The position numbers were made by a program, and so were the translations under genes. The notes below the pieces were generated by a model that was not told where the DNA came from, made no database searches, and was given only the letters and a program-made list of their open reading frames with translations. Shown in pieces: positions 40,705 to 40,787 of a DNA stretch of 64,000 bases; within the stretch, counting starts at the first letter, position 1; each line of letters begins with the position of its first letter. Origin of the DNA: a virus (taxonomy: Duplodnaviria > Caudoviricetes). The stretch is taken from positions 6,494 to 70,493 of IMG/VR virus record IMGVR_UViG_3300037424_000794; one strand, written 5' to 3'.

Positions 40705-40787
40705 TGGACGCTGAGGGATTTGAACCCACGAAGCATTTCTGCGATAGATTAAAAGTCTATTGCCTTTAGCCACTCGGCAAAACGTCC
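40705..40787 (-). tRNA. tRNA with TTT (Lys) anticodon on a type II long-variable-arm body
   Basis: ATAGA-CTTTTAA-TCTAT, then CGCAGAAATGCTTC variable arm; A73. Confidence 0.85.

Follow-up and report, generated by a model that had tools for sequence, protein, structure and literature searches.

Each amino acid is taken to have a fixed place in the division of tRNAs into class I and class II, the latter comprising Leu, Ser, Tyr, and Sec in bacteria. The described tRNAs that come closest to the gene studied here are the nev-tRNAs of nematodes (PMC3333845) and the allo-tRNAs (PMC7609411), which, like it, combine a long variable arm with an anticodon other than Leu, Ser, or Tyr. The former are eukaryotic tRNAs that accept Leu with anticodons of Gly or Ile (PMC3333845), while the latter have an 8/4 or 9/3 acceptor/T-stem geometry and a Ser-type identity (PMC7609411). 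Our tRNA departs from both in its 7/5 geometry, its A73, and its place in the Lys slot of phage arrays. Related genes are found in cultured phages; for example, the tRNA array of Caulobacter phage CcrBL9 contains an 87-nt tRNA-Lys(CTT), annotated plainly as tRNA-Lys, whose body is 83% identical over 72 nt to one of the relatives of our gene described below (window type). It differs from our gene in its CUU anticodon and in belonging to a jumbo Caulobacter phage, and there is no detectable DNA similarity between the two. In the full-text literature, a coverage that takes in few subscription journals and is not proof of absence, we found no description of a long-armed phage tRNA-Lys, and a review of non-canonical tRNAs makes no mention of phages. 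Long-armed tRNA-Lys is apparently an undescribed architectural variant.

A second line of published work concerns the targeting of this particular tRNA by antiviral nucleases. tRNA-Lys(UUU) is cut by PrrC, RloC, PARIS AriB, and a bacterial Schlafen, and phage tRNA variants neutralize tRNA-cutting defences (PMC1484252, PMC11464382, PMC12409363, PMC13056530, PMC11555353). The original prediction made for our gene had named tRNA-Lys(UUU) as the target of PrrC and PARIS/AriB, and both are indeed documented (PMC1484252, PMC11464382, PMC12409363, PMC13056530). In phage T5, tRNA-Lys(UUU) is an ordinary class I molecule of 78 nt that escapes AriB by means of U39A and A41C (PMC12409363). The T5 variant and our tRNA have in common that each is a phage copy of a nuclease-targeted tRNA, is unlike the host version, and is located in a large array. 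However, our tRNA keeps U39 and C40, and it is the whole body plan that is changed instead. Since the T5 tRNA is a class I molecule of 78 nt, the results obtained with it are not transferable to the long-armed family.

The window (the whole stretch of 64,000 nucleotides analyzed here) is part of an IMG/VR viral contig of 70.5 kb, estimated to be 77% complete, and encodes a family A DNA polymerase, a DnaB-like helicase, a UvsX-like recombinase, a primase, and a large terminase subunit. Near and distant searches of 50,697 phage records gave no DNA match to the UUU tRNA or its neighbourhood, and among the relatives of the DNA polymerase (identity of up to 40%), none had a comparable tRNA array and there was no synteny signal. 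Judged by these comparisons, this is a phage without a close cultured relative. Two perfect sigma-70-type matches, which are consensus matches only, precede the tRNA array and its second half, respectively; downstream of the latter come Leu(CAA), Tyr, Lys(CUU), and Val and then the long-armed UUU tRNA (Table 1). There was no type I Lys(UUU) among the ARAGORN calls for the window.

Table 1. Coordinates (positions in the window) of the tRNA array, its promoter-like sites, and the parts of the long-armed UUU tRNA gene.
Feature	Position	Strand	Basis or remark
tRNA array with the UUU gene	37465..42929	-	22 ARAGORN calls plus Cys(GCA) and the two rearranged genes
Cys(GCA)	38506-38576	-	Rfam addition to the ARAGORN calls
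Rearranged tRNA-like gene, UCU	39221-39297	-	missed by ARAGORN
Rearranged tRNA-like gene, UAU	40417-40492	-	missed by ARAGORN; Rfam 32.9 bits
Ser(UGA)	40508-40595	-	
Whole UUU tRNA gene, 83 nt	40705..40787	-	G1 = 40787, discriminator A73 = 40705; ARAGORN, Rfam RF00005, cloverleaf fold
T arm GUGGG-UUCAAAU-CCCUC	40713..40729	-	U50-U64 mismatch; sequence
Variable arm CGCAGAAAUGCUUC, 14 nt	40730..40743	-	sequence and fold
Anticodon arm, stem AUAGA/UCUAU, loop CUUUUAA	40744..40760	-	sequence
Anticodon UUU, positions 34-36	40751..40753	-	plus strand reads AAA; sequence, ARAGORN, and Logan contig
D arm, 3-bp stem GCC/GGC, 11-nt loop GAGUGGCUAAA	40762..40778	-	sequence
U8 U9	40779-40780	-	directly before the D arm; sequence
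Acceptor stem, 5' strand GGACGUU	40781..40787	-	pairs with AGCGUCC at 40706-40712; sequence
Type I Lys(CUU)	40951-41024	-	same array
Tyr(GUA)	41240-41322	-	same array
Promoter-like TTGACA-17-TATAAT, 12/12	41498..41526	-	consensus scan only, not evidence of function
Second promoter-like site, 12/12	42941-42969	-	heads the whole array; consensus match only

The gene at 40705-40787 is a real tRNA gene. ARAGORN called it as tRNA-Lys(ttt) at 40704-40787 on the minus strand, and the Rfam model RF00005 gave it 55.1 bits against a gathering score of 29, which is mid-range among the tRNAs of the array. The RF00005 cloverleaf is complete, with a 7-bp acceptor stem, a 5-bp anticodon stem and its 7-nt loop, U33, a purine at position 37, and the T arm GGUUCRA, and the acceptor and T stems have the normal 7/5 geometry. 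Within the acceptor stem, there are G1-C72 and one G-U pair; position 26 is A, the base after A73 is C, and CCA is not encoded. The variable hairpin is formed by GCA (40740-42) and UGC (40733-35) around a GAAA loop and is followed by UUC, the final C of which (position 48) is able to form a Levitt pair with G15. Folding of the RNA alone gave the five-armed cloverleaf, including this hairpin, as the minimum-free-energy structure. The ARAGORN call, the Rfam score, and the fold uphold what had been proposed from the letters, a UUU anticodon on a body with a long variable arm, and the CU-UUU-AA loop, the 3-bp D stem, the 14-nt variable hairpin, and A73 noted at that time are all present. The anticodon had also been placed one change away from both an ochre and a Leu anticodon; this is right for the former (UUU to UUA), but UUU to UAA takes two changes.

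The base calls agree in a second assembly. In run X1, a sediment metagenome that is probably the source sample and therefore not independent data, a Logan contig of 3,898 nt matches 40300-41173 with 0 differences, UUU anticodon included. This DNA run is the sole full holder of the sequence among public runs, and no RNA run is listed as a holder. Given that the bases are identical in this contig, an anticodon error confined to the IMG assembly is ruled out.

With regard to the body, the tRNA has the variable hairpin of at least 10 nt and the 3-bp D stem of bacterial class II molecules, but its UUU anticodon is not one of Leu, Ser, or Tyr. Isotype hidden Markov models built from phage tRNAs, with the anticodon masked, scored it at 42.5 (Ser), 40.8 (Tyr), 23.4 (Leu), and 20.5 (type I Lys) bits. 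When IMG/VR was scanned for its D loop and T loop, leaving the anticodon free, GTA accounted for 110 of the 123 matches listed and TTT for 8, and the same body was found once each with CAT, GCA, CCA, GCT, and TGA. A Tyr covariance model built from Tyr tRNAs that had not been picked by the D-loop scan placed the UUU tRNA second in the array (49.3 bits), after the true Tyr gene (65), a ranking that is supportive rather than decisive since the poor MAFFT alignment of the diverse Tyr tRNAs left the model with 10 base pairs only. A type I Lys covariance model ranked the same tRNA eighth in the array despite the matching anticodon loop, although this model is not specific (the highest score went to the window's Asn tRNA).

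Individual features were compared as well. Positions 8-9 are UU in 38 of the 116 Tyr tRNAs of the phage data set and in none of the 54 Leu tRNAs, 50 of which have UG; with a bacterial tRNA-Leu body, A73 is the only feature in common. Phage Ser tRNAs have the discriminator G73 in 56 of 63 cases and variable arms mostly of 16 to 21 nt (61 of 63 with at least 15 nt), compared with mostly 13 to 14 nt in Tyr tRNAs, so that with A73 and a 14-nt arm, the UUU tRNA departs from the serine pattern, its D arm nonetheless being Ser-like. Canonical class I tRNA-Lys(UUU) has the same CUUUUAA anticodon loop and A73 but a 4-bp D stem in place of 3 bp and a variable loop of 4 to 5 nt in place of 14 nt (5 nt in 24 of the 29 type I UUU tRNAs of the phage data set). 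In contrast, bacterial and phage tRNA-Tyr have in common with it U8 U9, the 3-bp D stem, the D loop GAGYGGYYAAA, a variable arm of 13 to 14 nt made up of 1 nt, a 3-bp hairpin, and UUC, as well as A73 and G1-C72. They differ in the anticodon (GUA instead of UUU) and in the T stem, which is GUGGG/CCCAC-like in the UUU tRNA, and positions 26 and 10-25 differ systematically from those of Tyr tRNAs with the same D loop. A73, the 14-nt arm, and U8 U9 therefore place it on the Tyr side of a Ser/Tyr-type body, not among Leu-type bodies. The body is Tyr/Ser-type, neither Leu-type nor ordinary Lys-type, which means that of the "Leu/Tyr-type" scaffold originally proposed, the Tyr half stands (masked score of 40.8 bits and D loop) and the Leu half falls (23.4 bits and UU at positions 8-9). 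A recent duplication of the window's own Tyr gene was considered as the source and ruled out, the two genes being dissimilar.

The arrangement recurs in other phages. A pattern combining the Tyr-type D loop with CUUUUAA retrieved seven long tRNA(UUU) genes from phage arrays in IMG/VR, and a looser one (T loop and a UUU loop 18 to 28 nt away) retrieved at least 76 distinct long tRNA(UUU) genes of 82 to 94 nt, also in phage arrays, many on contigs of 100 to 600 kb. A scan of metagenomes with the window-type pattern gave at least 20 stretches. Together, the IMG/VR and metagenome scans yielded 17 distinct members of the window type, all with UUU; these scans select by pattern, and the loci fetched show only part of each contig. 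In 185,579 prokaryote genomes (one per species), the window-type pattern had one match, a 6.9-kb contig with 12 tRNAs that resembles a phage array and was binned into an archaeal metagenome-assembled genome. The window-type family is essentially confined to phages.

The alignment of the 17 window-type sequences had 95.3% of its cells paired, and double changes were found in 19 of 23 pairs, a result reached by 0 of 500 shuffles. All seven pairs of the acceptor stem and four of the five pairs of the anticodon stem co-vary, the D stem shows complete (100%) pairing along with double changes, and the variable hairpin persists with other pairs (GGA/UCC, GGC/GCC, and GGGC/GCCC). The T stem of the relatives is mostly U50-A64, in contrast to the U50-U64 mismatch of the window copy. 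The sites of tertiary contact (U8-A14, G15-C48, the D-loop GG, and the T loop) are invariant, and many relatives encode CCA. In a wider set of 32 long UUU tRNAs, double changes affected 17 of 19 pairs, and among the 76 family members listed, the variable hairpin averaged 3.1 bp versus 1.3 bp in shuffles. The stems of the gene are under selection, as revealed by compensatory change.

The window gene has the features that define this family (a UUU loop, a variable hairpin of 10 to 21 nt, and a place in a phage tRNA array) together with the A73 found in most members. When the anticodon was removed, its seven nearest neighbours were long UUU tRNAs (best identity, 67/78), and Tyr tRNAs came only after them. 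Set against Tyr tRNAs with the same D loop, the UUU group stands apart in its T stem and in the base preferred at position 26, and it is therefore a lineage rather than the product of repeated accidents. Across the wider family, bodies vary, some being Tyr/Ser-like and others combining a D arm of the ordinary Lys type with an added hairpin, which suggests more than one origin of long UUU tRNAs. As the origin of the whole family, a hairpin inserted into a class I Lys tRNA was also considered; this fits the members with the D arm GCTCAATTGGTAGAGC but not the window type.

Which amino acid the tRNA carries can be approached through the synthetases. The identity set of LysRS consists of U34, U35, U36, and A73, and a transplanted UUU makes other tRNA bodies accept lysine (PMC9976931). 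All four elements are present in the window tRNA, and A73 is found in 63 of the 76 long UUU tRNAs listed and in 26 of 29 type I Lys tRNAs; its predominance in the family argues against serine. The distribution of tRNAs among arrays points to lysine as well. Among arrays of at least 16 tRNAs, counted on fetched loci that cover their contigs in part, a type I UUU tRNA was found in 10 of 26 with the long form and in 13 of 15 without it (Fisher p = 0.0036), and in 8 arrays of this size, the long form was the only tRNA with a Lys anticodon. Because ca. 40% of the large arrays with the long form also keep a type I UUU tRNA, the former is not a simple replacement of the latter. The long UUU family is complementary to type I UUU and fills the Lys slot in arrays. 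The published sets also leave room for a second enzyme, given that the bacterial TyrRS set consists of A73, U35, and G1-C72 (PMC9976931). The window tRNA has all of these as well as a variable arm of Tyr length, so that partial tyrosylation would be possible; it has U34 and U36 where Tyr has G34 and A36.

Class IIb synthetases approach the tRNA from the side of the variable loop, and the long arm could therefore hinder LysRS. Still, the UUU tRNA most likely carries lysine, as far as its letters, those of its relatives, and the standing of AAA at Lys positions of homologues (see below) can tell. The original prediction had offered two alternatives, a nuclease-resistant Lys tRNA on an unusual scaffold and a missense tRNA inserting Leu at AAA. 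The lysine part of the first is favoured by the co-varying phage family, the Lys slot, and UUU with A73, while its resistance part is plausible, as discussed below; the second is not supported, given the Tyr/Ser body, UU at positions 8-9, and the alignment of AAA with K.

Our preferred reading, to which we give a probability of about 0.55, is a working Lys tRNA charged by LysRS whose class II body may be a poor substrate for nucleases. The tRNA would read AAA and probably also AAG. Host LysRS would recognize UUU and A73 largely regardless of the rest of the body, and lysylation would proceed despite the 3-bp D stem, the Tyr-type D loop, and the extra hairpin arm. The altered D loop, D stem, and arm would in turn make the molecule a poor substrate for the nucleases that cut host tRNA-Lys(UUU), and the phage could keep translating its AAA-rich genes once host tRNA-Lys has been destroyed. 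The published AriB targets are Lys UUU, Thr UGU, and Asn GUU (PMC12409363). The sequence of the AriB cut site, U36-A-A-U39-C40, is kept in the window tRNA, with U instead of A at position 41, and any resistance to an AriB-like enzyme would thus have to come from the body. The variable arm branches off the core immediately after the anticodon stem's 3' strand, the one cut by AriB, and in the published AriB model, the second subunit sits on D-loop nucleotides 16-17.

Long arms were also found on bystander tRNAs of the same arrays, at frequencies of 47% for Ile(UAU), 23% for Asn(GUU), 19% for both Trp(CCA) and Lys(CUU), and 18% for both Thr(UGU) and Cys(GCA), with enrichment on anticodons ending in U36 (47/344 versus 33/568, p = 9e-5). 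These anticodons overlap the AriB target set, which makes a shielding role for the body plausible; for now, shielding against defence nucleases can be proposed on these comparisons as plausible. A broader version, which we regard as tentative and put below even odds, is that phages have an architectural class of tRNAs in which class II bodies bear Lys anticodons or, in other phages, those of Asn, Thr, Ile(UAU), Trp, and Cys, are charged normally, and are shielded by the arm and D region against nucleases with a hold on the anticodon stem and D loop, such as those of the PARIS (Toprim) and Schlafen types. The window gene would be a member of this class derived from a Tyr body.

Among the alternatives, the one nearest to our reading is that the gene encodes an ordinary Lys tRNA for codon supply, with the arm and the Tyr-type body being inherited traits of the lineage that have no role in defence. 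Such a purely historical explanation of the arm is a serious rival, though we consider it unlikely. All the evidence for Lys function applies to it equally, AAA is among the codons most used by the phage, the anticodon stem keeps UAAUC at the AriB site (PMC12409363), and long arms are also seen on tRNAs not known to be targeted by AriB, namely those for Trp, Cys, and Gly. However, the design recurs on very different bodies (Tyr/Ser-like ones and others with ordinary Lys-like D arms) and is confined to phages, and the enrichment on U36 would not be expected of a neutral trait. A much less probable proposal dispenses with translation altogether and has the molecule act, uncharged, as a decoy or sponge for nucleases directed at tRNA-Lys or for other host factors. 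In its anticodon loop and the stem sequence UAAUC, the molecule does imitate, on a different body, the site recognized by the nuclease, and some viral tRNAs possibly act otherwise than by rescuing translation (PMC12409363); the normal UUU tRNA present in ca. 40% of large long-form arrays would also suit a decoy. On the other hand, a decoy accounts poorly for a fully conserved tRNA architecture (acceptor stem, A73, and T loop), for the CCA encoded by many relatives, or for the 8 large arrays in which the long form is the sole Lys tRNA.

A missense or dual-identity tRNA, with TyrRS, LeuRS, or SerRS charging the body so that Tyr, Leu, or Ser is inserted at AAA as a weapon against the host or as statistical recoding, seems to us just as improbable as the decoy. 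It could draw on the masked body scores, in which Ser and Tyr come out high and type I Lys low, on a Tyr covariance model that places the UUU tRNA behind only the true Tyr tRNA, on retention of the main bacterial Tyr determinants A73, U35, and G1-C72 (PMC9976931), and on the Leu charging of nematode class II tRNAs whose anticodons are of other kinds (PMC3333845). The codon usage of the phage speaks against it. AAA makes up 604 of its 14,507 codons (4.2%), among the most used, and the homologue columns aligned with it have K in 39% of cases, compared with 38% for AAG; because AAA aligns with K as AAG does, AAA means Lys in this phage. Being both common and read as Lys, it could not be given to Tyr or Leu without damage to the phage's own proteins, every one of which would suffer, and such damage is hard to square with purifying selection on the gene. 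The family, moreover, fills the Lys slot of arrays, A73 speaks against SerRS (Ser tRNAs having G73), Leu-type features are missing, and LysRS reads all three anticodon bases, whereas G34 and A36 of Tyr are gone. Finally, an artefact (a misassembled anticodon) or a pseudogene (a Tyr copy in decay) is close to refuted. The T-stem mismatch U50-U64 and the fact that the sole read support comes from the probable source sample could be held in its favour, but a second assembly has identical bases, the Rfam score is mid-range for the array, and 16 other distinct relatives from other samples combine the same UUU loop with compensatory changes in the stems.

A conserved and widespread class II tRNA-Lys family in phages would break the rule of one class per amino acid and would be a natural experiment on the extent to which LysRS reads a tRNA. 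It also bears on the question of why phages carry tRNA arrays, and on how far body shape, as opposed to point changes in the anticodon stem, can work against PrrC, RloC, PARIS, Schlafen, retron Eco7, and Septu. If shielding by the arm is true, the arm could be grafted onto tRNAs in laboratory experiments on phage defence, and if the reading as a shielding class is true, lysine identity would have been moved in nature onto a class II scaffold by the anticodon alone.

Several other tRNAs of this array and of comparable ones are unusual. The class I Lys, Glu, and Gln tRNAs of the phage all have C34 (CUU, CUC, and CUG), and the long-armed UUU tRNA is the only one of this Lys/Glu/Gln group with U34; in bacteria, the Lys, Glu, and Gln tRNAs with U34 carry a thiolated U34. 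Ser(UGA) scored 39.8 bits with the Rfam tRNA-Sec model (gathering score, 47), higher than with the general tRNA model, and probably just has an unusual Ser body. In the soil metagenome run X2, there were short contigs 93 to 99% like 40413-40494 (the rearranged UAU tRNA) and 40511-40594 (Ser(UGA)) and nothing resembling the UUU tRNA.

Class II lengths on non-class II anticodons were seen in the phage tRNAs Asn(GUU) (92 nt), Glu(UUC) (85 nt), Pro(CGG) (95 nt), and Ile(UAU) (95 nt), while Trp(CCA), Cys(GCA), and Met(CAU) were found on a Tyr-type D loop in phage loci; the loci with other long-armed tRNAs came from IMG/VR and metagenome-assembled genomes (L010, L017, L015, L248, L064, L044, and L128). 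The opposite also occurs. At L248:2955-3208 and several other loci, some Leu tRNAs (UAA, CAA, and UAG) called by ARAGORN are 77 to 78 nt, that is, of class I length, and those of L248 share their array with long-armed Lys and Ile tRNAs; in the pooled table, 9 of 21 Leu(CAA) genes had at least 82 nt. In phiKZ-like Pseudomonas phages (PA1C, OMKO1, and others; hits H19-H30), the annotated tRNA-Asn and the body of a long-armed tRNA-Lys(UUU) from an uncultured phage are ca. 80% identical over 69 nt, a similarity suggesting that well-studied jumbo phages may carry a long-armed Asn tRNA.

In the two rearranged tRNA-like genes of the array, of 76 to 77 nt, the acceptor and T arms are normal and the anticodon loops (UCU and UAU) have 7 nt, but the D arm is missing from its usual position. 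Instead, a short helix (CCCC/GGG or AGC/GCU) surrounds the anticodon arm and is followed by the D-loop-like UAAUNGGNCACAUG. The 7 further rearranged tRNAs that a scan of IMG/VR gave, again from phage arrays, all have anticodons for Arg (UCU, UCG, and ACG), and compensatory changes were found in every helix.
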